Assembly: GCA_963662405.2 (NCBI GenBank)
Contig: CAXXKT010000001.1
Span: 1,952,001-2,016,000 of the forward strand
Origin: Syntrophales bacterium
GTDB lineage: Bacteria; Desulfobacterota; Syntrophia; Syntrophales; UBA2210
Length of the DNA: 64,000 nt
Direction of reading: 5' to 3'
Shown: one piece after another, positions 45,807 through 61,045 of the stretch
Position numbering within the stretch: the stretch's first letter is position 1
How the letters are laid out: every line of letters begins with the position of its first letter
The notes under the pieces: model-generated
What the model saw: only the letters and a program-made list of their open reading frames with translations
What the model was told of the DNA's origin: nothing
The model's database searches: none
Translations under genes and position numbers: made by a program

Positions 45807-47417
45807 ATGATTACACGTGCACCGTCATTTTTCGCGAGGGTTTCCTGTCGGTATCTGCTCCTCATAGCCCTGATCGTTCTGGCGATTCACGCCGGGACGG
45901 TGACGGGGGTGAGGGCCGATGATGCCGCCACGGTGGAGGTCGACGCGAATGGCATCGTTGTCACCCCCGCCACCTCCGCGGTGACCTACCTCCTCCTCCG
46001 AGTCGCCGATCCCCGGGGAGATCTGATCAGCGAAGAGAGCACCGCGGGGACCGGGATCACCTGGGCACCGCCGGCGGGGGCGGCGGACGGTTTCTACACC
46101 TGGGAGGTGCGCGCCGGTTTCAGCGCACGGAAGACATCGCGGGATGAGGCCGTGCAGGCACAGGAACAGACCCGCCCGTGGAGTCGGTCGGAGACCTTCC
46201 TCGTCAAGGAGGGTACCATCGTTTCTCCGTCCGGCACGGAAAGCGGTCTCCTCGATAGGCTCTTCTCCACGGCCTCCGCCGCCCTCGGGGTGTTTATGGA
46301 CCTCATGGTCCCGCCGGCCTGGGCGGATCAGGTCTTTCAAGACGATGTTATCGTCCAGGGAAGCCTCGGTGTCGGGATGGACAACGACAACGGTGAGCCC
46401 TTCGGGTACGACACGATCCGCCTCAAGGAGAACAACCTGCGGATCCGTTTTTACGATACCAGCAACAGTGCCTCTTTCCCCACGAACGACTGGCAGATCG
46501 TCATCAACGACTTTTCCAACGGCGGGGCAAATTACTTTGCCGTGGAAGATTTGGATGCGGGGAGGAGACCCTTCACGATAGAGGCCGGGGCACGCAGCAA
46601 CTCTCTGTATGTCGATAACGCGTACTACAGCCGTATCGGTATCGGAACGTCCACGCCGGGCATAACAGGGGGGGTCCACACGGTATGTGGCAACACCCCC
46701 ACCGTCCGGCTCGAGCAGGACGGATCGAGCGGATGGGCGCCACAGACATGGGACGTGGCGGGGCACGAAACCTATTTCTTCATCCGCGACGTGACACACG
46801 GTTCAAATCTCCCCTTCCGGATTTTCCCCGGCACGCCGAGCGATACCCTCTGTGTGGGGTCTGGTAATGGTGCGGAGATGCGTGTCGGGATCGGGACCAG
46901 AAAACCGGCGGCGACATTGGATGTGCAGGGGGACGCACGGATCGGGATCGAATCAGGAACGACGGCGAATGTGGTAGAGGTGTACGGGACCGTCAGGGTC
47001 ACGGCCGGAACGTCCTTTCCTGCGAAGCTGGAGGTGAATGGAAACGCCTTTGTCCTGGGGAATCTCGAGATGGGGAGCAGCAGGGAATACAAGGAAAACA
47101 TCCGGACGCTCGAGGTGGAGGAGGCGATGAAGGCCTTGCAGGAACTCCGCCCCGTCAAATTTCATTACACGGTCGACCCGGACGAGGAATCGGTCGGCTT
47201 CATAGCCGAGGAGGTGCCGGATCTGGTGGCTACCAACAGCAGGAAATCACTGAGCACCATGGATATTGTGGCGGTCATCGCCAGGGTCACCCAGGAACAG
47301 CAGGGGGTTGCACGGGAACAGCAGAAGGTGATCGAACAGCTCACGCTCAAGATCGCCGATCTGGAGAGCAAACTGAAAACGCTCTCGCGGAACACCCACT
47401 CCGGGGGTGCGCTCTGA
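45807..47417 (+). CDS. Secreted fibre-like protein with C-terminal peptidase S74 (intramolecular chaperone) domain
   Basis: Signal peptide; RVGIGT..P...LDV repeats; SSREYKENI...LRPVKFHY...GFIAEEVP; coiled-coil tail. Confidence 0.8.
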   Translation: MITRAPSFFARVSCRYLLLIALIVLAIHAGTVTGVRADDAATVEVDANGIVVTPATSAVTYLLLRVADPRGDLISEESTAGTGITWAPPAGAADGFYTWEVRAGFSARKTSRDEAVQAQEQTRPWSRSETFLVKEGTIVSPSGTESGLLDRLFSTASAALGVFMDLMVPPAWADQVFQDDVIVQGSLGVGMDNDNGEPFGYDTIRLKENNLRIRFYDTSNSASFPTNDWQIVINDFSNGGANYFAVEDLDAGRRPFTIEAGARSNSLYVDNAYYSRIGIGTSTPGITGGVHTVCGNTPTVRLEQDGSSGWAPQTWDVAGHETYFFIRDVTHGSNLPFRIFPGTPSDTLCVGSGNGAEMRVGIGTRKPAATLDVQGDARIGIESGTTANVVEVYGTVRVTAGTSFPAKLEVNGNAFVLGNLEMGSSREYKENIRTLEVEEAMKALQELRPVKFHYTVDPDEESVGFIAEEVPDLVATNSRKSLSTMDIVAVIARVTQEQQGVAREQQKVIEQLTLKIADLESKLKTLSRNTHSGGAL

Positions 47418-47558
47418 GTAACAGCGTCGAACGACCCCCGGATCTTGTGAAACGGGATGGTTCCGATGATTCGCTTCTTCCTGATGCCGGTACACGTGCT
47501 ACGGTCCATGCGTTACGCAGAGAGGTAAAGCGACCATACTCCACTCTATGATGAGGCA

Positions 47559-50234
47559 ATGATGAAAAGGCCTGTTTCTTGTGTAGCATTGCTCCTCTTT
47601 TTCGCTGTTCTGTCATTCGGGACTCTTCCGGCTTTAGCGGGCAGTATAATTATCCATAACGGAGCCACCCTGACCCCGAACGGATCAACGATCGATCTCA
47701 ACTGTCAGGACCTCACCGTAGAAGATGGCGGGACATTTAACCTGAACAGTGGTGCGGTTTCGGAATGTGGGAACCTGATTGTCGAGAGCGGCGGGTTTTT
47801 GATCCAGGGTTCGGGGACGATATCTTATTGCACCCCCACCGTCACAACCGAGGCGGTGACTGGCATCGGGACAACCACGGCGACCGGGAACGGAACGATC
47901 ACGGACCTCGGTGTATCAAATCCCACGGCACATGGTGTCTGCTGGAACACGACCGGTGCCCCCACGCTGGCGGACGACAGCACGGACGAAGGGGCGGCGG
48001 GGACCACCGGTACGTTTACATCCGCAATGACGGGGCTTTCGCCAAATACCACCTATTATGTCCGGGCCTATGCTGCCAATACGGAGGGGACGGCCTACGG
48101 TAATGAGGTGTCCTTTTCTACAGCGGCAGCCGCGGTTGCACCGACGGCCACCACCCGGGCGGCCAGCGGGGTCGACGACACGACGGCCACGCTGAACGGT
48201 ACCGTCAATGCCAACGGTGCCAGCACGACCGTCGCATTCGAGTATGGCACCGATACGAGCTACGGGACCACCGTCACGGCCGACCAGAGCCCGGTCGACG
48301 GTTTCACCGATAGGGCCGCCAGTAAGATCATCACCGGGTTGACCACCGGGACCACCTACCACTATCGTGTCGTGGCAACCAATGTCAACGGCACCACCAA
48401 TGGCGCTGACATGACCTTTACTCCCGGAGCCACGCCTCCGATGGCCACCACCCAGGCGACCACGGCAGTCGGGACCCAGGCGGCCACGCTGAACGGTATC
48501 GTCAATGCCAACAATGACAGCACAACCGTCACCTTCGAGTATGGAGAGACAGCCGCGTACGGCAGTTCGGCAGATGCCGATCAAAGCCCGGTTTCCGGCA
48601 CGACCGATACGATCGTCAGCGCGACCATCACCGGTTTGACCGAAGGTGTTACCTATCACTACCGCGTCGTGGCGACCAATGCATCCGGCACCACCACCGG
48701 CGCCGATATGACCTTTACGACCGGTGTTACCCCTCCGACGGCCATCTCCCAGGCGGCCACGGCGGTGGGTACCACGACGGTCACGCTGAACGGTACCGTC
48801 AATGCCAATGGAACCAGTACGACCGTTACCTTCCAGTACGGAGAGACGACCGCGTACGGGGCCACGGCGAATGCGGTTCAAAGCCCGGTTTCCGGCACAA
48901 CCGACACGGCTGTCAGTGCGGCGATCTGCGGTCTTACCGCCGGTACCACGTATCACTATCGTGTCGTGGCCCAAAATGGCGGTGGCGCGACTTACGGCAC
49001 TGACCTGACCTTTACGACGGGAACCATGCCCCCGACGGTCACCACCCAGGCGGCCACGGCAGTGGGCACCACGACGGCCACGTTGAACGGCATCGTCAAT
49101 GCCAACGGTGCCAGTACGGTTGTTTCTTTTCAGTGTGGGACAACTGTTGAGTACGGGAGGACAATCACGGCAAGCCAGAGCCCGGTCACCGGGTCCAGTA
49201 ATACTGCCGTCAGCGCCGCTATGGATACACTCACTCCAAACACCCTCTACCACTATCGGGTATGCGCCGTGAATGGAACGGGAACCACATACGGTGCGGA
49301 TATGACCTTTACGACCAATCCGCTCGGGGCTCCCACGGTCACAACCACCACGGTGAGCGATATAACGATGACGACGGCGACAAGCGGAGGAACCGTCACC
49401 GAGGAAGGAAACGCTCCGGTGACGGCGCGGGGAGTCTGCTGGGGTACCTCGTCAGGTCCGACCATCGATGACTCCATCACCTCGAACGGCACGGGCACCG
49501 GTGCATTTACCAGCGACCTCGCCGGCCTGAGCCCGCTCACGACCTATTACGTCAGGGCGTACGCGACCAATACCATCGGGACTTCTTACGGGGATGCAAT
49601 GCAGTTCCCGACCGATGACGACGGCACGGGGGTGGAACCCGAAACCCAGGCTGCCGGGCCGAACGGCGGGGACGGGAACGGAGATGGGATGCAGGACAAC
49701 CTGCAGAGAACGGTCGCCTCGCTCCCCTCGGCAACCGGCACCGGATATCTGACTGTTGAGATATCCGGTTGTGACCAGATCGAACAGGTGAGGGCGGTCA
49801 CGTACGATTCAGTGGGATTAATCGATCCCGGATACGCTTATCCCTTCGGCCTGCTGAAATTTGAGATTCCCTGTTCACCGGTGACGGTCAGAATTTACTA
49901 CCACAGTGCCGAGACCCTTGAGGGGTACCGCTACCGGAAATTCGGACCCACTCCGAATAACTGGAGCAGGTCGATCTGGTATACCCTGCCGGAGGTGACC
50001 TTCGGCACGGCACTGATCGGAGGGCAGACTGTGTGCTATGCAGAGTTCATCCTGACGGCAGGTCAGCTGGGAGACGATACCGACGGCCTTTCGATCATCG
50101 ATCAGGGCGGCCCGGGATTATTTGACCCCTACGCAGTCCCCGTTTTCTCAGCATGGGGTATGATGCTGTTCACCCTGCTGGTTGCGGGAGCGGCGATTGT
50201 ATGCGTGAGAAGAAAAAGCCATATGACGGTATAA
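47559..50234 (+). CDS. Thr-rich surface protein with six FN3-like repeats, choice-of-anchor U-like domain and IPTL-CTERM-like tail
   Basis: Signal peptide; ~99-aa repeats (ATLNG.VNAN...TYHYRVVA.N); DGNGDG; AVPVFSAWGMMLF...VRRK. Confidence 0.85.
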   Translation: MMKRPVSCVALLLFFAVLSFGTLPALAGSIIIHNGATLTPNGSTIDLNCQDLTVEDGGTFNLNSGAVSECGNLIVESGGFLIQGSGTISYCTPTVTTEAVTGIGTTTATGNGTITDLGVSNPTAHGVCWNTTGAPTLADDSTDEGAAGTTGTFTSAMTGLSPNTTYYVRAYAANTEGTAYGNEVSFSTAAAAVAPTATTRAASGVDDTTATLNGTVNANGASTTVAFEYGTDTSYGTTVTADQSPVDGFTDRAASKIITGLTTGTTYHYRVVATNVNGTTNGADMTFTPGATPPMATTQATTAVGTQAATLNGIVNANNDSTTVTFEYGETAAYGSSADADQSPVSGTTDTIVSATITGLTEGVTYHYRVVATNASGTTTGADMTFTTGVTPPTAISQAATAVGTTTVTLNGTVNANGTSTTVTFQYGETTAYGATANAVQSPVSGTTDTAVSAAICGLTAGTTYHYRVVAQNGGGATYGTDLTFTTGTMPPTVTTQAATAVGTTTATLNGIVNANGASTVVSFQCGTTVEYGRTITASQSPVTGSSNTAVSAAMDTLTPNTLYHYRVCAVNGTGTTYGADMTFTTNPLGAPTVTTTTVSDITMTTATSGGTVTEEGNAPVTARGVCWGTSSGPTIDDSITSNGTGTGAFTSDLAGLSPLTTYYVRAYATNTIGTSYGDAMQFPTDDDGTGVEPETQAAGPNGGDGNGDGMQDNLQRTVASLPSATGTGYLTVEISGCDQIEQVRAVTYDSVGLIDPGYAYPFGLLKFEIPCSPVTVRIYYHSAETLEGYRYRKFGPTPNNWSRSIWYTLPEVTFGTALIGGQTVCYAEFILTAGQLGDDTDGLSIIDQGGPGLFDPYAVPVFSAWGMMLFTLLVAGAAIVCVRRKSHMTV

Positions 50235-50475: not shown

Positions 50476-51513
50476 TTAGAATGTGTGGATTGCCGTTGAT
50501 TTAAAAGAAAAGAATGTCTCCGATCCCTCGCCGACCTCGAGGTCAAAGAGGGAGCTTTTGGTGATCAGCGATTTGAAGGTAACGTTTTCAATGCTCACAC
50601 TCACTTCGTAGTAGAGCCCCTGATCCGTCACCTCCGTGACATGTCCCTTGAAAGAATTTCTCATGCTGGAGACCAGCTTTCTCTTGCTGAGGACGACATC
50701 TTCGGGACGTATGGCGATATAGCCGTGCCCGTTTTCAGGTGTTCTCCCCAGCTCGATCTCCAGTCCGTTTATGACGGCCTTGGTATCATGGAAACGGGCC
50801 GTAAACAGGTTTTTCATCCCGACAAAATCAGCGACAAACGTGGATCCCGGTCTCTGGAAGATCTCTTTCATCCCTCCGACCTGCTTGATCCTTCCTCCGT
50901 CCATGACGGCAGCCCGGTCCGCGAGGGAGAGGGCCTCTGAGAAGTCGTGGGTCACCATGAGGAAGGTGGCATCCGTGTTTTCGTGGAGTCGTTTGAGTCC
51001 CTTTCGCAGATCCTCTCGGAATACCGGGTCCAGGGCGGAGAGGGGCTCGTCGAGGAGAAGCACCTGCGGGTTTACGATCAATGCCCGCGCCAGGGAGACG
51101 CGCTGGTTTTCCCCGCCGCTCAGGTTTGTGGGGAGACGCTGCAGGAGGTGGGCAAGGTTCAACTCTTCCACCAAGCGATCAAAGCGTTGTGTTGCCTCTG
51201 CCTTGGAGGTCTTATGGAAGTGGAGACCATAGGTGATATTGTCCTGCACCGTCAGGTGGGGAAAGAGCGAATAGTCCTGATAGACGATGGATATCCCCCT
51301 CTTTTCCGGTGGAAGTCCGGTGATGTTTCGGCCGTCGACGATGATGTGCCCGCTTTTGACCCGGATCAGCCCCGCGATCGCCTCGAGGAGCACCGTCTTC
51401 CCCGCCCCCGTGGGACCCATCAGTATGAAGAACTCGTTCTTCTCGATCGAGAGGTTGATTTCTCGGAGGTCGAATTCCCCCAGGTGGATGTCGACGTTAT
51501 CGATGTTGATCAT
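50476..51513 (-). CDS. wtpC: Tungstate/molybdate ABC ATPase with TOBE domain
   Basis: GPTGAGKT, LSGGENQR, DEPLSALD, C-terminal TOBE. Confidence 0.88.
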   Translation of the reverse strand: MINIDNVDIHLGEFDLREINLSIEKNEFFILMGPTGAGKTVLLEAIAGLIRVKSGHIIVDGRNITGLPPEKRGISIVYQDYSLFPHLTVQDNITYGLHFHKTSKAEATQRFDRLVEELNLAHLLQRLPTNLSGGENQRVSLARALIVNPQVLLLDEPLSALDPVFREDLRKGLKRLHENTDATFLMVTHDFSEALSLADRAAVMDGGRIKQVGGMKEIFQRPGSTFVADFVGMKNLFTARFHDTKAVINGLEIELGRTPENGHGYIAIRPEDVVLSKRKLVSSMRNSFKGHVTEVTDQGLYYEVSVSIENVTFKSLITKSSLFDLEVGEGSETFFSFKSTAIHTF

Positions 51514-52295
51514 GATCGCTCGGTGCTCCTGAGGGTGAGGATCCGCAAGACCAGAAAGAGAATCAGACAGATAGATACGAGCCACACCGCCACCGGTTGA
51601 GAATATTTAAGCCCGTAGCTTTCAAACCGTTCATACAACAGGACCGGCGCGATCATGGGGTGATACGCGACAATAACGACCGCCCCGAACTCGCTGATCG
51701 CGCGGGCGCTGCACATGATGATGCCGATCAGCATGCTGCGCCAGGCGAGGGGAAAGGTGATCCGGGTAAAGGTGCTGAACATGGAGGCCCCGAGGCTCCG
51801 TGATACGTTTTCGAGCCGGGGCGGGATGTTTTCAAATCCGTTCTTGACCGCGTTGACGTAGAAGGGAAGCCCCACAAAGGTGAGGACCACGACGATCCCC
51901 GTCACACTCCCCATGATCCTGATGCCGAGTTCGTTGAAAAACTGTCCGAGCCAATGTCCCCTCCCCGCGACGCTGAGGATCGCGATCCCCACGACCGGGT
52001 GGGGAATGACGATCGGGAGGTCGATGATGCTCTCTATCAGGTGTTTCCCTTTGAAATCGCTTCTCGCGAGGATATAGGCGAGTGGGGTGCCGAAAAGGAA
52101 GGCGATGACCGCGGCCAATCCGGCTGTGTAGATGCTCAGCCAGATCGACCGCACGACATCTTTGTCTTGAATGGTTTCCTTGAGCATGGATAGAGAAGGG
52201 GCCGTCAGCATCTGAATCAGCGGAAGGAGGATGAAGGCCATGATAACCAGCCCGCACGACACGGTGATCCAGAAAAACGGTTCCTTCTTTATCAT
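51510..52295 (-). CDS. wtpB: Tungstate/molybdate ABC permease
   Basis: DLPIVIPHPVVGIAIL, ARAISEFGAV.IVAYHP. Confidence 0.88.
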   Translation of the reverse strand: MIKKEPFFWITVSCGLVIMAFILLPLIQMLTAPSLSMLKETIQDKDVVRSIWLSIYTAGLAAVIAFLFGTPLAYILARSDFKGKHLIESIIDLPIVIPHPVVGIAILSVAGRGHWLGQFFNELGIRIMGSVTGIVVVLTFVGLPFYVNAVKNGFENIPPRLENVSRSLGASMFSTFTRITFPLAWRSMLIGIIMCSARAISEFGAVVIVAYHPMIAPVLLYERFESYGLKYSQPVAVWLVSICLILFLVLRILTLRSTERS

Positions 52296-52310
52296 TGTTT
52301 TTTCTGTTTC

Positions 52311-53297
52311 CTAGTTCTTGACGGTGACGAGGCCCTGAAGCTCTGAGGGGAGCTTCGCCTTCATCGCCTCAGAGGAAACCCTGCAGGGGACAAACGGAGG
52401 CTGCCCCATCTCCTCCAATATCTTAAGACCTCCTTCAGGGTCAAGCATATACGCGAGGAAGGCAACAGCGGCTTCCCGGTTGGGGGCGTTTTCGATGAGC
52501 GTGACGCCGTACGTACAGGATTTTCCTTTCATCTCCATATAGGTCCCCGGTTTTTTCCCCGTGACCTTTACCACCGCCTTTTCGTAAATCGGATCATATT
52601 TGTAATTCCCCAGGTTCATTTCGTCGGGAAGAACGATATATCTCAGCTTATGCTGGACCGCTACGGAAAGGTATTCCCAGGCATAGTCCATATTGCCGGT
52701 CTGGAGGAGAGAAATGAGTTCAACGGATTTGGGCCGGATATTTTCCTGGGGCCTGTTGGCCAGCAATTTATCGTAGAGACCCGGTTTCCCGAGTGCCTTT
52801 TCGGCGAGCTGCATCACCATCAGCGACCGGTAGCCGCAGGGATCGAGGTTCGGGTCGGAGTGGCCCCAGACAACGCCCTTTCTCTGGAGGATTTCGTACC
52901 AGTTGGAGGCGTTGATCTCACCGGCGAACCTGCTTTTGTCCGTGTAGCAGAGGACCAACTGGTTCGTTGCAAAACGGATGTTCAGGACGGAATACTGGGG
53001 GATCAGCAGTTTGTCGATCACCTTGTAGTCGGCCGAAGCCATGATATCGCACGGTTTTTTGAGATCCGATATCTTCCGCGCGGCCTTCTGGCTCCCGCTT
53101 GCCTCGCGCTGGAGATCGACTTTCGGGTACTTTGCCTCAAAGGCCTTTTCCATGGCGGCGAAGGGGACGGTGAGGCTCCCGGCGTGGAACATGGTGAGTT
53201 TTCCCTCAGGTTCGGCAAAACCGGTTGCCGGAGCAATGAAAAAAAAGATTCCGGTCAGTAAAAACCCCAACCACCTCCATCTGTTAATGGTCCTCAT
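52311..53297 (-). CDS. wtpA: Tungstate-binding periplasmic protein WtpA
   Basis: [41 protein letters not shown]. Confidence 0.92.
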
Positions 53298-53384
53298 GCG
53301 CTGTCTCCTTTCGCGATAAAAGATAAAAAATGTAACCCTCCAAATCGATCGTTTTTCCTACCTCACCCGAATTACAAAGTCAAT

Positions 53385-53500
53385 ATCAATATAAATGGTA
53401 ATTATTGATTCAAATTAGTAATTATTAATAATGATGAGTATATCTGAGTATGTTACGGTTATTATTAGTTCTAAATAGTAAGTTTTTATCTTGACAAAGG
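53385..53500. promoter_or_regulatory. AT-rich divergent control region with phased repeats
   Basis: gtaattatt at 53398 and 53418, gttattatt at 53458; TTGACA at 53491. Confidence 0.5.
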
Positions 53501-53569
53501 TTTTTGATGTGATAGGGCATACTCGCGTTTGAAGTAATACGTAATTTCTAAGGATTGGAGGAGCGTGTT

Positions 53570-55615
53570 GTGAAGATAAGATACGTGGTTCTGTCGATAC
53601 TTGTAGGCATTCTTTTTCTCTATGGATCTCAGTGTTGGGCTGATTATGAGGTATACACGCTTGGTGAGGTGGTGGTCAGTGATGAAACCCCGGCGGTTGA
53701 GGAAACTGCTCAAGTAACCGTTATCACAGCTGAAGACGTTAGGGCGACAAACAGCCACTCGGTCGCGGATGTCCTGAAATCTGCGCCGGGGCTGTACGTG
53801 ACCACGGGGAGGAAGGCCGAGACGAATGTCTCGATTCATGGGTTTAATCAGGATAAGGCGTTGGTCCTTATCGACGGTATCCCCTACTACGAGACATATT
53901 ACGGCAAGCTGGATCTCAATAAGATCCCGGCTGATATTATCGCCAAGGTTGTCGTCACAAAGGGGGCCGCATCAGTGCTGTACGGTGCCAATGCGGAAGC
54001 GGGTGTCATTAATATCGTGACCAAAAAGGCGGGCAAAGAAGCTTCGTCCTCTGTGAACGTTGAGATTGGTGATAACCACTATCAGAAGGCGTCCGGGTTT
54101 TTCGGCGATACGAGCGGCATATTCAATTACTCGGTCAATATCCAACGAGAGGAAAGTGATGGATGGAATATGTCCGACGATTTTGACCCGGTTGTCGGAT
54201 CGTACGGGAAAAAGAAAAAGATGGTGGAGGAGGTCCTCGAAGACGGAGGCTTCCGCAATAATTCCGATTATGAGAGTACGAATCTGTGGGCGCGATTCGG
54301 TATAGAGCCGAATCCGGATTCGGAACTGTATGTCAGTTTCCGTGTTGCCGAGGGGGAGAAGGGATTCCCTCTGAACATCTACGAGAATCCGACCCATTTT
54401 ACGGACAGACCCGCCTTTTCATATCTTGCCCGATCGGAGTACCGGGACACCGGTGTTGATCTGAGCGGACGGCATGCAATCAATGACTTCGTGACGTTGA
54501 AGGCGAAGATCTTCTATCATGAGCATGAAGATGACTATATATCATACGAAGATACGACCTATGACTCCAAGATGGCGGTCAGCACCTTTGATGACAAATG
54601 TTACGGGTTAAGCCTGTTCACCGACTACAAGCCGGTTGAGTGGGATACGCTCAAGGCATCCATTCATTACAAGGTCGATTCTCACAAGAGCCGGGACGAC
54701 GATTATCTCCCCTTTGACGAAGCAAAGGCGAATACCGGGTCGGTCGGTATCGAGAACGAGTGGAATGCCGTAGAAAATCTCTCGGTAGTGGCAGGCATAA
54801 GTTACGATTGGTTCGATGTGACCAAGGCTCAGTCAAGTGAGACCGACGACAACGGTGATTTTCTCAGCCAGGAAGATCTGACTGAGCCCGGCGTCAAGGA
54901 TTGTGTCAATCCCATGATCGGTGTGGTCTATTTCTTCCGGGACACAACAAAATTCTACGCATCGGTGGCTCAGAAAACACGGTTCCCCGTACTCCATGAA
55001 CTGTACTCCAGTAAATCGGGTAACCCCGATCTTGATGAGGAAAAAAGTATCAACTATACGATCGGCGTCTCACGTCCATTCTTCGATATGGTCACCATGG
55101 AGCTCGCTTTCTTTCACCACGATATCAGTGATCGGATCGGGCGTCCCAACCGCGATTACGATTATATGAATTATGATGAGATCGCCATGACCGGTTTCGA
55201 AATCATATCGGAGGCATATGTTGCCGAGGACCTTACGTTAAAAGCGGCATATATGTACAATGACGCCCGCGATAAGAGTAGGAACCGCGTTACTGACAAG
55301 GTGACGGATGTGCCCGAACATAAGATAGATCTGAGCGCTGAGTATGTTATCCCCTCCGTCAGGACAAAACTGAATGTGACCGGTTCATACATGGCCACGA
55401 TCTATTCGGAACTTCCTACGACAAGCAATCCGGACGATCCTGAACGTGAAGCGGACAATTATTGGCTTTTTAATATGAGGATCACGCAACCATTGACGGA
55501 GCACCTGGAGGTCTATGTCGCGGCCAATAATATATTCGATAACGATTATGAAGAAGAATGGGGATGGCCGGGACACGGGAGAGAAGTATGGGCCGGTCTG
55601 AGCGCTCGATTCTGA
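53570..55615 (+). CDS. TonB-dependent outer-membrane receptor
   Basis: Signal peptide, TonB box LGEVVVS, plug LVLIDG...KGAASVLYG...GVINIVTKK, terminal F. Confidence 0.95.
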   Translation: MKIRYVVLSILVGILFLYGSQCWADYEVYTLGEVVVSDETPAVEETAQVTVITAEDVRATNSHSVADVLKSAPGLYVTTGRKAETNVSIHGFNQDKALVLIDGIPYYETYYGKLDLNKIPADIIAKVVVTKGAASVLYGANAEAGVINIVTKKAGKEASSSVNVEIGDNHYQKASGFFGDTSGIFNYSVNIQREESDGWNMSDDFDPVVGSYGKKKKMVEEVLEDGGFRNNSDYESTNLWARFGIEPNPDSELYVSFRVAEGEKGFPLNIYENPTHFTDRPAFSYLARSEYRDTGVDLSGRHAINDFVTLKAKIFYHEHEDDYISYEDTTYDSKMAVSTFDDKCYGLSLFTDYKPVEWDTLKASIHYKVDSHKSRDDDYLPFDEAKANTGSVGIENEWNAVENLSVVAGISYDWFDVTKAQSSETDDNGDFLSQEDLTEPGVKDCVNPMIGVVYFFRDTTKFYASVAQKTRFPVLHELYSSKSGNPDLDEEKSINYTIGVSRPFFDMVTMELAFFHHDISDRIGRPNRDYDYMNYDEIAMTGFEIISEAYVAEDLTLKAAYMYNDARDKSRNRVTDKVTDVPEHKIDLSAEYVIPSVRTKLNVTGSYMATIYSELPTTSNPDDPEREADNYWLFNMRITQPLTEHLEVYVAANNIFDNDYEEEWGWPGHGREVWAGLSARF

Positions 55616-55732
55616 TAGGGTACGAGTTGATATTGTCCCGGAGGCGAGGGTGAGTAATGGGAGAGGGTCTGATGGACGGGGATGAAACCGGCCACAGACC
55701 CTCCATACCGTACGCAAGGTTAGTCCGGTAAC

Positions 55733-56437
55733 ATGAAATTTTGGCAATGTGTGGTTGCAGCCCTCTTGTTGCACATGGCGATTCTGATGATCCCGATAAC
55801 GGTGACGGACATAACTCGTGTGGGAGAATTCCGGCTGGTGATCTCTGAGACGGTTTCCACTCCGTCCGTATCGGCTGTGGTACCGGCCGTAAGACCACCT
55901 CAGGTGAAGAAACCGAAATCTATCATAAAACCGAAATCCATTGTGAAACCAAAACCAAAACCGAAACCGCCTGCGAACACGCCTGAGATCAAACCGCTCA
56001 AGAGGGACAGCATATCCGAACCTGTGGAAGGCCCATCGCTTCCGGCAGCCCCCGCACCGGAGACCATTGAGGTCGGGAACACCGATCCTGTCGAGGAAGT
56101 TCCTTGTGCCGGGCCGGAGATTTCTCAGACCGCAGAGGAGCGCGAACCGGTGGAGATGTCCTTTGGTACCTCGGGAGGACCGAAATTCCTCAAGCAGGTA
56201 CAACCGGTATATCCCCGGAAGGCAAAAATGTTACGGAAGAGAGGGGTCGTAACCCTCATGCTGACCATAGATAAAGACGGAACCCTGATTGATGTAGAGG
56301 TTGTGAAAGGCGCGGGGTACGGCTTCGATGAAGAAAGCATACGGGCCGTGAAGGAATCAACGTTCATCGGCGCCCGGAAGAACGGCAGGCCAATCGCCTG
56401 TAAGGCCTTACTGCCGGTACGATTTCGATTGAGGTGA
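55733..56437 (+). CDS. tonB: TonB
   Basis: TM anchor, KP repeats, YP..A..G, PVRFRL. Confidence 0.93.
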   Translation: MKFWQCVVAALLLHMAILMIPITVTDITRVGEFRLVISETVSTPSVSAVVPAVRPPQVKKPKSIIKPKSIVKPKPKPKPPANTPEIKPLKRDSISEPVEGPSLPAAPAPETIEVGNTDPVEEVPCAGPEISQTAEEREPVEMSFGTSGGPKFLKQVQPVYPRKAKMLRKRGVVTLMLTIDKDGTLIDVEVVKGAGYGFDEESIRAVKESTFIGARKNGRPIACKALLPVRFRLR

Positions 56438-56985
56438 ATGCGGTGATTGATTTGTTTGTGAAAGGGGGGCCGTTGATGTGGCCCATCGCCCTCTGTTCCG
56501 TTATCATGGTTGCCATCATTATCCACAAGACGGTCCAGTTCACGGTATTACTCCGGCAGCTTTCATGGCCCCGACAACGAATCCGCGAACAGAGACCCCG
56601 CCATATTGCACTCCTGCTGGATGTACTCGCTGCGAAACGGGATGAGGAGGAAATCGTTCTGGCGGGGAGCAGGAATCTGAAGATCCTGGAAAGAGGGGTC
56701 GGGGCCCTTTCGCTTATAGCGGCTATTGCGCCTTTGATGGGGCTCACCGGTACGGTTCTCGGTATGATCGAGAGTTTCAGGATTATGGCTGCCTCCGGCG
56801 GAACTGCCGGTATCGGGCTTCTGGCGAAAGGCATATGGGAGGCGCTCCTGACAACGGCGGCGGGACTCCTTGTCGCCATTCCCGCGGAGATCGGCTACCA
56901 CTATCTGGAACGGCGGCTGGATGAGATATCGATTGCCATGAAGTCTCTCGTGTTACGGTTTAGAGGTGCGGACGATGCAGTTTGA
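56434..56985 (+). CDS. exbB: ExbB/TolQ proton channel
   Basis: APLMGLTGTVLGMI, GIWEALLTTAAGL. Confidence 0.93.
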   Translation: MNAVIDLFVKGGPLMWPIALCSVIMVAIIIHKTVQFTVLLRQLSWPRQRIREQRPRHIALLLDVLAAKRDEEEIVLAGSRNLKILERGVGALSLIAAIAPLMGLTGTVLGMIESFRIMAASGGTAGIGLLAKGIWEALLTTAAGLLVAIPAEIGYHYLERRLDEISIAMKSLVLRFRGADDAV

Positions 56986-57373
56986 GCGAAAAAAGAGGGC
57001 TCCGATCCATACCAATATAGCCCCCCTTGTCGATGTCGTCTTTCTCCTTCTGCTCTTTTTTATGGTGACGTCTCATATCGCGCTGGACCCCTCCATCGAT
57101 ATCAGCCTGCCCCAGTCAAAGACTGCGCAGCATCATGAATCGGATCCTGTGACACTTTCCATATCGAGGGAAGGGGAGATCTTTATCGGTGGAAAACAGA
57201 TTACGATAGAAGAAATCTGCGGTGCCGTCCGAGCACATCTGCAGGGTTCCGATACGAAAACGATCAAAATAAGGACGGACAAAGATATCCCTGTGGGAAC
57301 CCTGATACGGGTGGTGGATGAGGTACGGCTTTCAGGGGCGCATGGGCTGAGCATCCTAACGGAAAGAATATGA
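56975..57373 (+). CDS. exbD: ExbD
   Basis: NIAPLVDVVFLLLLFFMV. Confidence 0.93.
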   Translation: MQFERKKRAPIHTNIAPLVDVVFLLLLFFMVTSHIALDPSIDISLPQSKTAQHHESDPVTLSISREGEIFIGGKQITIEEICGAVRAHLQGSDTKTIKIRTDKDIPVGTLIRVVDEVRLSGAHGLSILTERI

Positions 57374-57399
57374 GAAACGAGATGAATGGGAGGTAGAAG

Positions 57400-58533
57400 A
57401 TGTCGAATAGGTCTGTATATCTGTCTGTGGTCATGAGTGTCCTGCTCGTCATTTCTGTGTTCGGATGTGACCGTTCGGACAGGGCATCGAGGCTGGCGGA
57501 AAAAAACGATACCCACAAGGCTGGGGTCACCAAGAAAAGCGGGGGGATAAATGACCCGGTCATGTCTCGGGGGAAGGCCGGCGTCCATTCGGGATTGCAT
57601 ATTTCCGGCGAGGTTCGGCAGCAACTCACCTTGCAACGAGAGGACCTTGAGCGGTTGCATGCAGCGACCACACGAACGAATGAAGTTTTACGATCGGGTC
57701 ATTATCGCGGCGCGTTTACGTACCGTGGCCCCTCTCTCAGATCGCTCCTTGAATTTGCGGGCATAGATAAAAAGAGCTCCGATTTCAACAAAGACCTTGA
57801 TCTGGTGATCGTGGTGGAAAACGGCGAAGGTGAAGAAATCGCCCTCTCCTGGGGTGAGATCTTTTATCGGAACCCCGGAGATATAATCGTTGCCGTGGAG
57901 GCCGCGCCGATCCGACCGCATCATGAAAGAGACCGCATCCCCCGGGCCTATTGGCCGTGGCTCGATCAACTTGACCGTGAAATCGGTTTCCCCAAGCTTG
58001 TCGTTGCAAATGATTTTTATTCGGATCGCTCCCTCGAAGGGATTCGGCGTATTCAGGTGATCGATCTGCACCCCGCTGTGCAGCGGAAGAAGCAGAAAAT
58101 GCTCTTCTCGCCTTCTTTTTCCATATGCGGTGCCGTGGCCAATCCGGTTACCATATCGGTTCTCCCCGAGAAAAACTATGACACTGTTGTGTTCAAGGAA
58201 GTGGGGGACGGACAGGGATATCACGGGTTAAAAACGTTCGGGGGTGTGCCCCTCGTCGATCTGCTTGAACAGGCAGGGATGAAGGGTGATCTTGACACGG
58301 CCGTTGTCATCTCCGCCCCGGATGGGTACAGAACGACCCTCTCATATGGGGAGCTGTTCCTGTCGAACGGGGGGAAGGATATCCGTATCGGTGACACAAT
58401 GGGAGGTGAATATCTCACCAATAGAGGCAAATTCTTTGTGTTATTGCCGGACGACCTTTCCGCCGACAGGTCCGTCAAGGCCATTCAGGAAATCAGAGTG
58501 GTACCGCTGAGCCGAGAGAATCCCTCTGAGTAG
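57400..58533 (+). CDS. Lipoprotein with two tandem molybdopterin-binding (sulfite-oxidase-fold-like) domains
   Basis: Lipobox VFGC; ISGEV...YRGPSLRSLLEFAG...LSWGEI repeated as ICGAV...FGGVPLVDLLEQAG...APDGY...LSYGEL. Confidence 0.7.
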   Translation: MSNRSVYLSVVMSVLLVISVFGCDRSDRASRLAEKNDTHKAGVTKKSGGINDPVMSRGKAGVHSGLHISGEVRQQLTLQREDLERLHAATTRTNEVLRSGHYRGAFTYRGPSLRSLLEFAGIDKKSSDFNKDLDLVIVVENGEGEEIALSWGEIFYRNPGDIIVAVEAAPIRPHHERDRIPRAYWPWLDQLDREIGFPKLVVANDFYSDRSLEGIRRIQVIDLHPAVQRKKQKMLFSPSFSICGAVANPVTISVLPEKNYDTVVFKEVGDGQGYHGLKTFGGVPLVDLLEQAGMKGDLDTAVVISAPDGYRTTLSYGELFLSNGGKDIRIGDTMGGEYLTNRGKFFVLLPDDLSADRSVKAIQEIRVVPLSRENPSE

Positions 58534-58542
58534 ACGAGATCC

Positions 58543-59307
58543 ATGGAAAACGATGTACTGTTTATCAAGAACTGGATGATGGCGGCATGCGGCTTCTATC
58601 TGCTGTCGAGCCTTGCCTATCTTGTGGGTCGGAAACGCATAGCGGTTATATTGCTTGTCACCGGGTTGCTGTCCAATGGTGTTGCCCTCGTCGGCAGGGG
58701 ATATATCGAAAAAGCCTGGTATCCAGCCCTCATGGTGCCTGAGCTGTTTGTCCTTCCCGCGGCCATGGCCTTGACGATCGGTTTCCTGTTCAAGCGGCAA
58801 AGGGTCATCGAGGGCAGAGTGGCGCTTATTCCCTTTGCTGCCTGTTGTTGCGTAACGATGCTTCTGCCCGTTGAAGCAGCGCTCCCCTGGGTTAAACAGC
58901 AAACCGCCTCGGCCGCCCTCTTTTTCCTCACCGAAGCCCTGAGTTGCGCCTTATTGGTGATCGCCGGCGCCTGTGCATGTGCGTCTCTCGTTCCGAGGAC
59001 CGACAACAGTGTAATATCCTATAACGGGCTGGTCCTCTGGGGTTTTCTCGCCTTTACGCTCTGCCAGATATCGGGAGCCGTCTGGGCATATCTCGGGTGG
59101 TCATACCCGTTTTCATGGAGTCCACGGCATTTGACCAGCGCTTCCCTCTGGTGCCTGTATGCCGCTCTTATCCATGCCCATTTCACGGGGATACAGGAAC
59201 GGCTGAAGGCGATCCTGACCGCTTTTGGTATCATTCCAATCACATATATGGTCTATCATCATGAGATAGTCACACTCCTGCAGGTGGTATCGGCGAGGTT
59301 CACATGA
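58543..59307 (+). CDS. CcsA/ResC-like membrane protein with degenerate WWD motif
   Basis: GAVWAYLGWSYPFSWSPRH...WCLYAALIH. Confidence 0.75.
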   Translation: MENDVLFIKNWMMAACGFYLLSSLAYLVGRKRIAVILLVTGLLSNGVALVGRGYIEKAWYPALMVPELFVLPAAMALTIGFLFKRQRVIEGRVALIPFAACCCVTMLLPVEAALPWVKQQTASAALFFLTEALSCALLVIAGACACASLVPRTDNSVISYNGLVLWGFLAFTLCQISGAVWAYLGWSYPFSWSPRHLTSASLWCLYAALIHAHFTGIQERLKAILTAFGIIPITYMVYHHEIVTLLQVVSARFT

Positions 59308-60047
59308 ACCGGTTCATTCGATTTCTGACCCGTATGGAAACAGGTTTTTTCCTGTTGATCGTTGCGTCGGCACTGTTATTGACGGGGGGCATTATAGCCG
59401 ACGTGCATGACACGTCGCTCAGGGCATTAAATTTTCTCACCTTTCAGAAATGGTTTCCAAAACACTCCATGAGACCCCTCCTGTATGTGTGGATATTGCT
59501 GCTTTTCGGCATTTTTTTTCTTCTTGCCGTCAACACGTTTCTCTGCACGGTTTCCTATGTGAGAAACATGTCGAGGAAGGGACTGTCGGCGAGGAGATGG
59601 GGGATTGTTCTGTTCCATTGCTGCTTTTTGATGTTTCTCTCGGGACATTTTCTGTATGGATTTACGGGAATCTGTGAAAAAGTGATGGTTGAAGAAGATA
59701 TCCCCTGCACGATCCCTGCCCTCGGTCTGTCCCTTGTCCCCTTCGCGGTTGAAAAGGGTGTCCTGTCCGTTTACGGGCAAGAAGTCCCCGCGGCGGTAAA
59801 GGCGGGGATCACGGTGTCGGATGAAAGGGGCGGGGAGACGACAATACATCCGGCAACGCTGAGACCGAAGCGCGCATTGGGATACACCGTTCATATCTCC
59901 ATGAAAGATAAAGCCCTTTCTCATTCGCAGGTCGGCATCATCGTGCGCAAGCAATACGGTCTCGACCTTTTGATTGGAGGGGGGATCACCATGCTGATGG
60001 CCATGGCGCTCTTCCTGCCGAGCGTGTTTCGTTCCCGTGGCCGTTAG
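59304..60047 (+). CDS. Short ResB/CcsB-like membrane protein
   Basis: LLAVNTFLCT, WGIVLFHCCFL...GH, periplasmic beta domain, C-terminal TM. Confidence 0.65.
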   Translation: MNRFIRFLTRMETGFFLLIVASALLLTGGIIADVHDTSLRALNFLTFQKWFPKHSMRPLLYVWILLLFGIFFLLAVNTFLCTVSYVRNMSRKGLSARRWGIVLFHCCFLMFLSGHFLYGFTGICEKVMVEEDIPCTIPALGLSLVPFAVEKGVLSVYGQEVPAAVKAGITVSDERGGETTIHPATLRPKRALGYTVHISMKDKALSHSQVGIIVRKQYGLDLLIGGGITMLMAMALFLPSVFRSRGR

Positions 60048-60145
60048 TCTTTGCCGTCCGCCGTTATGGCCTGGATCATCGGAAGAGCGCATTCTGTTTT
60101 GAGCCGTGATTCACTTCGCAATGTCGTTGACCATCATACCGGAAC

Positions 60146-61045
60146 ATGGTAAAAACCACGAATATGGAGAAAGAACTTCTCACCACGAAAGAACTGGCGG
60201 GTTTTCTGCGGTTCAACGAGAAGAAGATCTACCAACTCGTCAGAGACAGTGGTATCCCCCATGTCAAGATTGCCGGGAAGTGGTTGTTCCCCCGGCGGCA
60301 TGTCCTTCGCTGGATAGACGAACAGGTGCAGAGGGAGAAGGATGTCCTGATTGTCGGGAGCGACGATGCCCTCATGACGAGGCTCGTTTCCCTCTATTCT
60401 CAGGAAAATTTCCCCGAGTCCCAGGCCTTCTACTCGTCCGTGGGAAGCCTGAAGGGAATCCAGTCTCTGATGCGGATGAAGGGGCAGGCCTGCTGCACCC
60501 ATATCCTGGATATCGAGACAGGCGTGTATAACCTTCCCATCCTCGAGAGGATGCTTTCACCTCAGAGATATGTGGTCATTCACCTCTGGTGCCGGGAGCA
60601 GGGACTGATCGTGGCGAAGGGGAACCCCCTCGGGATAAAGACACTCGAAGATATTGCGGAAAAAGGGGCGCGATTCATCAATCGGAATGTCGGTTCAGGG
60701 ACGCGGGTCCTCATCGACTATCTGATGAAAGAAAGAGGACTCGACGGACGAGAGATTACCGGTTTTACTACTGAACAAGACAGCCACATCGGGGTGGCGC
60801 AGAGGGTCTTCTTCGGAGAGGCCGATGTCGGTGTGGGAATCGAGTATGTGACGCACCTCCTCGGTCTTGACTTTATCCCCCTCAGGGAAGAGAACTTCGA
60901 TCTTGTCATCCCCGAGGCGCTCTGGTCCACGGTCCCCATCAAACGCTTTGTCTCCTATCTGGACCCCGCACGGATCAAGGGACTCTCTGCAAATCTGCCG
61001 GGGTACAACCTGAAAGATACGGGAAAGCTGGCCTTCCAAAATTGA
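60146..61045 (+). CDS. Excisionase-type HTH fused to a molybdate/tungstate PBP-like domain (regulator)
   Basis: LLTTKELAGFL...KIAGKWLFP; GSDD, VGSLKG, REQGLIV..GNP, FINRNVGSGTR. Confidence 0.88.
   Translation: MVKTTNMEKELLTTKELAGFLRFNEKKIYQLVRDSGIPHVKIAGKWLFPRRHVLRWIDEQVQREKDVLIVGSDDALMTRLVSLYSQENFPESQAFYSSVGSLKGIQSLMRMKGQACCTHILDIETGVYNLPILERMLSPQRYVVIHLWCREQGLIVAKGNPLGIKTLEDIAEKGARFINRNVGSGTRVLIDYLMKERGLDGREITGFTTEQDSHIGVAQRVFFGEADVGVGIEYVTHLLGLDFIPLREENFDLVIPEALWSTVPIKRFVSYLDPARIKGLSANLPGYNLKDTGKLAFQN

Follow-up and report, generated by a model that had tools for sequence, protein, structure and literature searches.

A TonB-dependent receptor and a tandem sulfite-oxidase-fold protein beside tungstate importers: a candidate accessory module for tungsten or molybdenum acquisition in Desulfobacterota and Nitrospirota

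The DNA analysed here, in the following called the window, is a stretch of 64,000 nucleotides from a Syntrophales bacterium (contig CAXXKT010000001.1, positions 1,952,001 to 2,016,000). It carries an operon for a TonB-dependent receptor (TBDR), TonB, ExbB, ExbD, a lipoprotein with two sulfite-oxidase (SUOX)-fold domains, a CcsA-like and a ResB-like membrane protein and a regulator, divergently oriented to the tungstate importer genes wtpCBA. An earlier sequence-only reading had described eight co-directional genes divergent from wtpABC, and gene calls and profile matches placed 11/11 genes at the position and on the strand it had given. Judged by sequence comparison, receptors of a distinct clade co-occur with a Sec-exported protein of tandem SUOX/PruR folds, next to tungstate importers and under operators of the tungsten/molybdenum (W/Mo) type, and the CcsA/ResB-derived pair keeps a membrane haem site, not the haem-attachment site. 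On these grounds it is highly probable that the module serves W/Mo acquisition. The whole chain that we propose, i.e., import of bound W (or Mo), capture in the periplasm, redox-assisted release and uptake by WtpABC, is put forward tentatively, at a little less than an even chance.

The link to tungsten rests on a survey of the neighbourhood. A scan of GTDB yielded 97 relatives, the best 80 of which were kept and underlie all counts of 80 loci; 29 loci have at least 8 kb on each side and are referred to as well flanked. The module recurs in Desulfobacterota and Nitrospirota with a patchy distribution (6 of 41 relatives, 28 of 301 phylum genomes). In the well-flanked loci the TBDR is found in 28/29 and tonB/exbB in 20/29; TupA is encoded in 15, WtpA in three and a TaoR-like regulator in eight, any of the three in 18; LysR is found in five and FecCD in three. 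A W gene or a W/Mo-type box is present in 26 of the 29, supporting the W/Mo link proposed in the sequence-only reading. A genome has on average about 0.8 TupA-like genes (235 matches in 301 phylum genomes, none over the curated cut-off), from which we estimate a chance adjacency of about 0.5% per 20 kb compared to the 15/29 seen. A metagenome set, partly repeating the same contigs, gave 11/15 for the same question. Moreover, clades throughout the tree show the link with importers and regulators that differ between them (47 rows passing the motif filter), and the module TBDRs form one clade (58/76 rows, SH-aLRT 99) apart from the other TBDRs of the genome.

Furthermore, three unrelated operators were found across the module loci, a TaoR-type 10-bp array as in the window, a ModE-type palindrome and a LysR box. 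The units of the window's array lie at 53398, 53418, 53458 and 53478, flanked by divergent TTGAC hexamers at 53379-83 (minus strand) and 53491-95 (plus strand). In eight TaoR/WtpA/TupA-type promoters, TTGAC is preceded by GT(A/C/T)A units that follow a 10-bp phase. This phase is kept by 31 of 40 motif pairs, with a shuffle mean of 1.3 and 0/5000 shuffles reaching the observed value, and a pattern-free autocorrelation of the array promoters has its maxima at lags 10 and 20. A matrix trained on promoters other than that of the window gives the window's intergenic region the top score in the 3.8-Mb genome (23.8 vs 18.4) and scores 11 of 15 other TaoR/Wtp-labelled promoters well, one being a duplicate of a training locus, and none of nine LysR promoters. 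The array was not found at the aldehyde oxidoreductase (AOR), formate dehydrogenase (fdh) and modABC promoters of the window's genome, so the TaoR-like regulon seems limited to this locus. A generic promoter scan did not rise above shuffles, and the site at 53491 is not among its matches. The regulator combines HTH_17 and PBP_like domains beside W/Mo transport genes, which is the architecture described for TaoR (PMC11980592, excerpt); the oxyanion regulator of the sequence-only reading is hence upheld in its architecture, which is an already known one. Where an array occurs with no local regulator, a full-length HTH+PBP gene is encoded in 5/5 genomes; for array-less genomes the count is 0/5, and the partial PBP matches include four in MoeA-type frames of about 650 amino acids.

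The LysR loci carry ATGAA-N5-TTCAT at -37 in 5/5, and in a third promoter group TATGTC-N6-GACATA directly follows the -35 hexamer. Genome-wide, this ModE-type palindrome precedes tupA-like genes, fdh beside a short ModE-like gene, an Mo aldehyde oxidoreductase and modABC, and also porins and some unrelated sites. Of the top 11 matches in the window's genome, six fall on fdh/modABC promoters, and three of these six were not in the training set; ModE-like HTH genes, below the cut-off, are present in 5/5 genomes.

Several observations concern the genes around these operators. The operon G000:C1:144869-150600 comprises modABC, fmdE and a short modE, carries palindromes at 149303 and 149569 and adjoins an fdh operon; its box also precedes other fdh operons. 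A TupA-like protein with an HDPFRE motif and no signal peptide is encoded at 15 loci (e.g., L009:10994-11797, L041:17877-18659), all with LysR or ModE boxes and none of the TaoR type, and is possibly a cytoplasmic tungstate sensor for regulators that have no binding domain of their own. A secreted TupA paralogue with TGSP replacing TTTS occurs at 14 loci (e.g., L044:15928-16794, L041:18666-19529) and may bind other W species or the released ligand. One locus of a near-complete genome (L126, G036:C8:638224-639907) holds a decaying module in which the genes for the SUOX-fold protein, the ResB-like protein and the receptor are frameshifted. Selenocysteine as an explanation for split receptors was rejected, since all four inspected breaks terminate in TAG instead of TGA.

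The same operators bear on the idea that the module takes up or remodels a tetrapyrrole (haem or corrinoid) and came to lie near W genes by hitch-hiking. The methylase domain fused to many relatives of the lipoprotein is closest to the tetrapyrrole (TP) methylases CbiF/CobM, the membrane pair descends from CcsBA and has a sister in CobN-like operons, and the TBDR weakly matches haem and B12 receptor models. However, the promoter of the module itself occurs in three W/Mo-type operator/regulator settings, and its TBDRs are separate in the tree from the CobN-linked TBDRs. Neither a cobalamin nor a Moco riboswitch was found in the window or in 17 loci, and no Fur box lies upstream (best match 12/19 to the Fur consensus); this lack of any sign of B12 or Fur control supports the sequence-only reading. 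Tetrapyrrole uptake is accordingly considered very unlikely.

The second constant part is the secreted protein, of which 496 homologues were found; residue counts refer to 209 full-length homologues. The AlphaFold model of the window's lipoprotein (pLDDT 84, pTM 0.78) consists of two domains at about residues 60-225 and 232-372. It resembles the Moco domain of the sulfite oxidase SorA (VIA Z 16.1, rmsd 2.3 over 136 residues), and domain 2 resembles PruR (Z 14.4, rmsd 1.9 over 120 residues), with unrelated structures far below at Z<=6.9. The two SUOX-fold domains of the sequence-only reading are thereby borne out, and so is the absence of the metal-ligating Cys: the only Cys residues in the window's protein are C23 (lipobox) and C243, and at the hairpin that holds the metal ligand a Cys is present in 1/209 homologues for domain 1 and 1/209 for domain 2. 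The register of the Cys equivalent is ambiguous within E95-R98 (domain 1) and E267-D270 (domain 2). Near-invariant features are a GDGxGYHG loop, SAPDGYR and ADRxVK, and K124, K131, R193, R210 and R357 are invariant. Sec or lipoprotein signals precede the homologues, in most cases ordinary signal peptides, the lipoprotein form being confined, by inspection, to the window's clade. No Tat motif (RRxF-like) was found (0/209), so that a cofactor, if any, would be acquired outside the cytoplasm.

A Cys-less SUOX fold is not unique to this family, a point missed in the sequence-only reading. PruR of A. tumefaciens (Atu3496; PDB 7kou, 7rkb) is a secreted Cys-less SUOX-fold protein for which pterin was seen in crystals (PMC11194511, PMC13259868, excerpts), and it provides a precedent by binding pterin with no Cys. 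Its likeness lies in secretion, the Cys-less fold and domain 2. PruR differs by a single domain of about 170 amino acids, a PW motif, a short hairpin and its partner DcpA, whereas the window's family has two domains, long acidic hairpins, usually a CxxCH and a TBDR and W importers as partners; a Trp at the Cys position or a DcpA-type gene downstream was not found. Of the pterin-pocket positions of PruR (Asn/Tyr/Trp), assigned by motif reading and not by overlay, D308 and Y310 are invariant and position 361 is A/S. Sequence searches with domain 2 against the PDB gave no PruR/SUOX alignment, and a plasmid search with the lipoprotein gave no match. In the ESM Atlas an unnamed cluster of 748 members, mostly Bacteroidota, has a likeness of 0.92 to the lipoprotein, and the family may reach well beyond Desulfobacterota.

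By sequence, members of the family are typically soluble and contain CxxCH, and many have a fused TP-methylase; the sequence-only reading, based on the window, missed this form together with the APC neighbour. A CxxCH in a loop of domain 1 is present in 172/209 homologues and a C-terminal TP-methylase domain in 42 of the 80 GTDB loci, with SAM motifs intact in 67-68 of 74. An APC transporter lies 3' of 24/32 fused and 0/26 unfused genes, although the lineages are not independent. The window's protein has neither CxxCH nor methylase and hence appears to be a reduced version; in four of its close relatives the methylase domain is decayed. Stand-alone TP-methylase homologues with apparent signal peptides stand at the module end at L037:16804-17748, L041:16866-17792 and L062:16821-17744; a periplasmic SAM enzyme would be unusual.

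Could the protein be a true W/Mo redox enzyme, similar to MsrPQ or SorAB, with a carboxylate replacing the Cys, the membrane pair as quinone-side partner and the receptor supplying the substrate? The SUOX fold with its long hairpins, the acidic residues at or near the Cys position (E95 in 189/209, D/E270 in 206/209) and the frequent CxxCH would fit. The fold is shared with the sulfite oxidase family (YedY/MsrP, SorA, SoxC; Z 12-16), and haem and SUOX domain are paired in SorAB as in the relatives of the window's protein. However, the window's protein differs from this family by the missing Mo-ligating Cys and Tat motif, by its tandem duplication and by having no dimerisation domain. Moreover, the ModE-type box directly after the -35 hexamer is repressor-like and shared with importers, the opposite of what is predicted for a metal-consuming enzyme, an objection qualified by the presence of the box in front of fdh genes. 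We regard an enzyme of this kind as improbable.

The third part, the CcsA-like and ResB-like proteins, is homologous to the System II cytochrome c synthase CcsBA of H. hepaticus (TM-score 0.67 to 7s9y), confirming the repurposed CcsBA of the sequence-only reading. The ResB-like family profile matches CcsBA with an E of 3e-4; the gene itself had no match in Pfam/NCBIfam. Mapped on 7s9y, the transmembrane (TM) His pair is invariant (CcsA H211 in 63/63, ResB H105 in 65/65), and the WWD tryptophans are kept (W181 and W192 40/40, W186 39/40). Equivalents of P-His1, D840 and E843 are altered family-wide: the P-His1 column has F128 in the window (F in 45/63, H in 14/63), no C-terminal His corresponding to P-His2 is conserved in the family, the window's clade having H239-H240 near the expected place, and D840, K842 and E843 are replaced by S193, R195 and H196. 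For H. hepaticus CcsBA, P-His1 and E843 were reported as needed for synthase activity and W828, W833, K842 and E843 as the required residues of the WWD region (PMC6299221, excerpt). The pair thus shares with CcsBA (7S9Y/7S9Z) and CcmF the sequence, fold, TM-His pair, WWD tryptophans and predicted pairing, and it differs from CcsBA, beyond the exchanges named, by a much shorter ResB, extra His residues and a distribution independent of CxxCH. SUOX-linked members carry the extra His at ResB H115 (64/65) and CcsA H196 (47/63), compared to 5/10 and 0/10 in CobN-linked members; this second His pair is possibly a second haem site, given that E843 of CcsBA crosslinks haem. The predicted CcsA-like/ResB-like complex reached a score of 0.80, with haems outside the score and the best control at 0.01, contact agreement between runs of at least 81% and partner pLDDT of at least 81; the mark for this score is reached by 116/157 solved and 2/215 mismatched pairs, and the score probably arises by likeness to the solved CcsBA.

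These residues and the distribution of the pair decide against a haem lyase that is dedicated to the CxxCH motif in the SUOX-fold protein and survives as a relic in the window. The pair adjoins a CxxCH protein in 31/80 loci, and the CcsBA fold, H239-H240 and the His in 14/63 at the P-His1 column would be in line with such a role. However, 12 of 14 loci with no CxxCH retain the pair, 12 well-flanked loci with CxxCH do not have it, and an intact housekeeping ccsBA is encoded elsewhere in the window's genome. Changed attachment residues and a distribution independent of CxxCH together argue that the pair is no dedicated haem lyase; by known criteria the family, as far as its sequences tell, cannot act as one, and this reading was rejected as extremely unlikely.

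Alternatively, within the same W/Mo scavenging and closer to the sequence-only reading, the pair could form a channel through which a flat aromatic ligand (freed pterin or haem b) crosses the inner membrane. Such a channel is favoured by the kept WWD tryptophans, which position a planar ligand, by the description of CcsBA as a haem channel (PMC10663686, excerpt) and by sister pairs in tetrapyrrole-type operons. However, the invariant TM-His pair implies a haem at the base of such a channel, and the SUOX-specific H115/H196 pair fits a second bound haem better, making a channel unlikely.

We favour a redox role in release, suggested by the sister pairs. A short ResB-like match at E<=1e-25 occurs in 50/301 phylum genomes. 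Among 20 regions hand-picked from matches not adjoining a SUOX gene, nine adjoin a protein of about 1250 amino acids, which is CobN in 6/6 tested, and these nine mostly also hold TBDRs and FecCD-type ABC genes, a setting which the sequence-only reading did not see. The CobN homologue HmuS requires NADH to strip iron from haem (PMC12583661, excerpt), and the TM haem of CcmF acts as an electron conduit (PMC10663686, excerpt); from these three points we infer the redox-assisted release. The Desulfobacterota operons L088-L096, with TBDR, CobN-like protein of about 1250 amino acids, degenerate ccsA/resB and type II ABC genes, are possible Hmu-like tetrapyrrole dechelation systems. L100, L101, L104 and L106 hold short ccsA/resB pairs with WxPKE and P-His1 kept and no TBDR nearby, and represent another small-CcsBA subfamily.

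Taken together, the module would be an accessory acquisition system regulated by W/Mo status. The TaoR-like protein would bind the 10-bp array and raise expression when tungstate is scarce. The receptor would import W (or Mo) in a ligand-bound form that is too large, or present at too low a concentration, to enter by porins. The most attractive candidate is a metal-pterin/dithiolene set free by cell lysis, with an organic chelate or thio/poly-tungstate as alternatives. The tandem-domain protein would capture this form in the periplasm. The CcsBA-derived pair, holding a stable haem b like CcmF, might then exchange electrons with the tandem-domain protein and free the metal, and tungstate would enter via WtpABC. 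In relatives the SUOX-fold protein may relay the electrons by its c-haem, and sulfurs of the ligand may be blocked by the fused methylase; methylation is part of human molybdopterin catabolism (PMC11514484, excerpt), only a loose parallel.

Within the bound-W reading, a metallopterin as imported substrate is possible rather than probable on the comparisons made. The two SUOX-fold pockets would then serve the two pterins of W-bis-pterin, and in relatives a periplasmic SAM methyltransferase, fed by the APC antiporter, would aid stripping. In its broadest form, in which anaerobes scavenge environmental W/Mo-pterin by TonB import, grip it with a SUOX fold and strip the metal for TupA/WtpA by a di-haem b wire derived from a cytochrome c synthase, the idea is likewise speculative.

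Alternatively, the module could actively take up plain tungstate (or thiotungstate) where it is very scarce, with no ligand removed; this is conceivable, if somewhat doubtful. The receptor would concentrate the oxyanion, and the SUOX-fold protein would be a mere shuttle using its GDGxGYHG loop and the conserved Lys/Arg residues. The neighbourhood and operators fit this equally well, and the invariant Gly-rich loop and basic residues, moaC in 26/30 genomes and the dispensability of pair, CxxCH and methylase favour it. It does not explain, however, why a haem-binding membrane pair, a c-haem and a methylase whose SAM motifs are intact were recruited repeatedly, nor does it account for the TupA paralogue with its altered motif, and WtpA/TupA already bind tungstate.

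A number of observations weigh against import and release of bound W. The pair is optional, being found in 17/29 well-flanked loci, a point missed in the sequence-only reading; it is absent from 12/29, and family-level scores found it absent from 5/5 such genomes tested, which implies that the release step is dispensable. The same holds for the haem (CxxCH) and the methylase, and the window's clade has no CxxCH relay. Since moaC is present in 26/30 module genomes, these do not need pterin salvage, and pterin auxotrophy as a driver was rejected. By motif reading, not structural overlay, the sandwich Tyr of PruR is apparently kept in domain 2 only (Y310, 209/209), and the sandwich Trp position is A/S in the family. 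Moreover, both operator patterns were first chosen by eye from these same promoters, no array scored at four TaoR-labelled promoters (L147, L154, L014, L065), the loci L015, L072 and L078 show no W/Mo sign, FecCD-type ABC genes occur in 6/80 loci, and the surveyed loci are related and not independent.

Compared to TupABC and WtpABC systems under TaoR or ModE (TunR) control, with which it shares wtpABC and the regulator architecture (PMC11980592, excerpt), the window's module additionally has an energised passage of the outer membrane and proteins for processing. With Bacteroidota Hmu (HmuR and the dechelatase HmuS) and TonB-dependent metal-chelate uptake it shares a receptor, reductant-dependent release and a metal importer, differing in the metal and the releasing proteins; Hmu, in the descriptions consulted, has no CcsBA-like pair. 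The parts have known relatives, and the assembly is a variant of TonB-dependent metal-chelate uptake. Among the papers listed by literature searches, in which few subscription papers were covered, neither a TonB W/Mo system or this gene set nor a degenerate CcsBA family was found, though TaoR/TunR regulon tables may list the receptor. The sequence-only interpretation is in all partly supported, i.e., for the W/Mo link, the Cys-less fold as such and the repurposed CcsBA.

The coordinates are collected in Table 1. WtpA exceeds both curated NCBIfam cut-offs and is accompanied by a permease and a TOBE-domain ATPase, WtpB and WtpC being best matches slightly below theirs. The likely true start of wtpC is ATG 51513 and that of the TBDR GTG 53570, 3' of GGAG (ORF-finder start 53555). 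Spacing from tonB to the resB-like gene is -20 to +26 bp, with wider gaps of 117 bp 3' of the TBDR and 98 bp 5' of the regulator. The genome (3 contigs) holds the accessory module genes in one copy each, wtpA as sole copy, two modABC-like operons, one AOR and four TGA-containing FDH-type genes; tupA-like genes gave no match at E<=1e-30. Just downstream of wtpC, on the opposite strand, positions 45807-50234 encode a secreted protein whose C-terminal domain is an S74 chaperone, and an Fn3-repeat protein of 891 amino acids with IPTL-CTERM.

Table 1. Features of the module locus in the window (positions of the window).
Feature	Position	Strand	Basis
wtpC, ABC ATPase with TOBE domain	50476..51513	-	NF040840 403 bits, cut-off 440
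wtpB, permease	51510..52295	-	NF040839 306 bits, cut-off 340
wtpA, tungstate-binding protein	52311..53297	-	NF003196 448/355; TIGR03730 375/243
10-bp phased GT(A/T)A repeat array, putative TaoR-type operator	53396..53485	unstranded	motif and matrix scans
TBDR, module-specific clade	53570..55615	+	Pfam/NCBIfam profile match, tree
tonB	55733..56437	+	profile match
exbB	56434..56985	+	profile match
exbD	56966..57373	+	profile match
Lipoprotein (lipobox C23), two tandem Cys-less SUOX/PruR-fold domains	57400..58533	+	PF00174 E 3e-8; model
CcsA-derived membrane protein	58543..59307	+	PF01578; structure comparison
Short ResB/CcsB-derived membrane protein	59304..60047	+	family profile vs H. hepaticus CcsBA
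HTH_17 + PBP_like regulator (TaoR architecture), single copy in genome	60146..61045	+	profile match

Syntrophs and sulfate reducers rely on formate dehydrogenases of the W/Se type and on W-containing aldehyde oxidoreductases, and for these organisms the module points to a possible route for scavenging bound tungsten. The receptor clade, together with the operator and the periplasmic protein, makes the passage of W through the outer membrane and the use of bound W testable. Moreover, the analysis exposes a possible SAM-dependent enzyme of the periplasm, accompanied by a transporter, and a large family of CcsBA derivatives that accompanies TonB receptors in at least two settings, the W module and the CobN-like operons.

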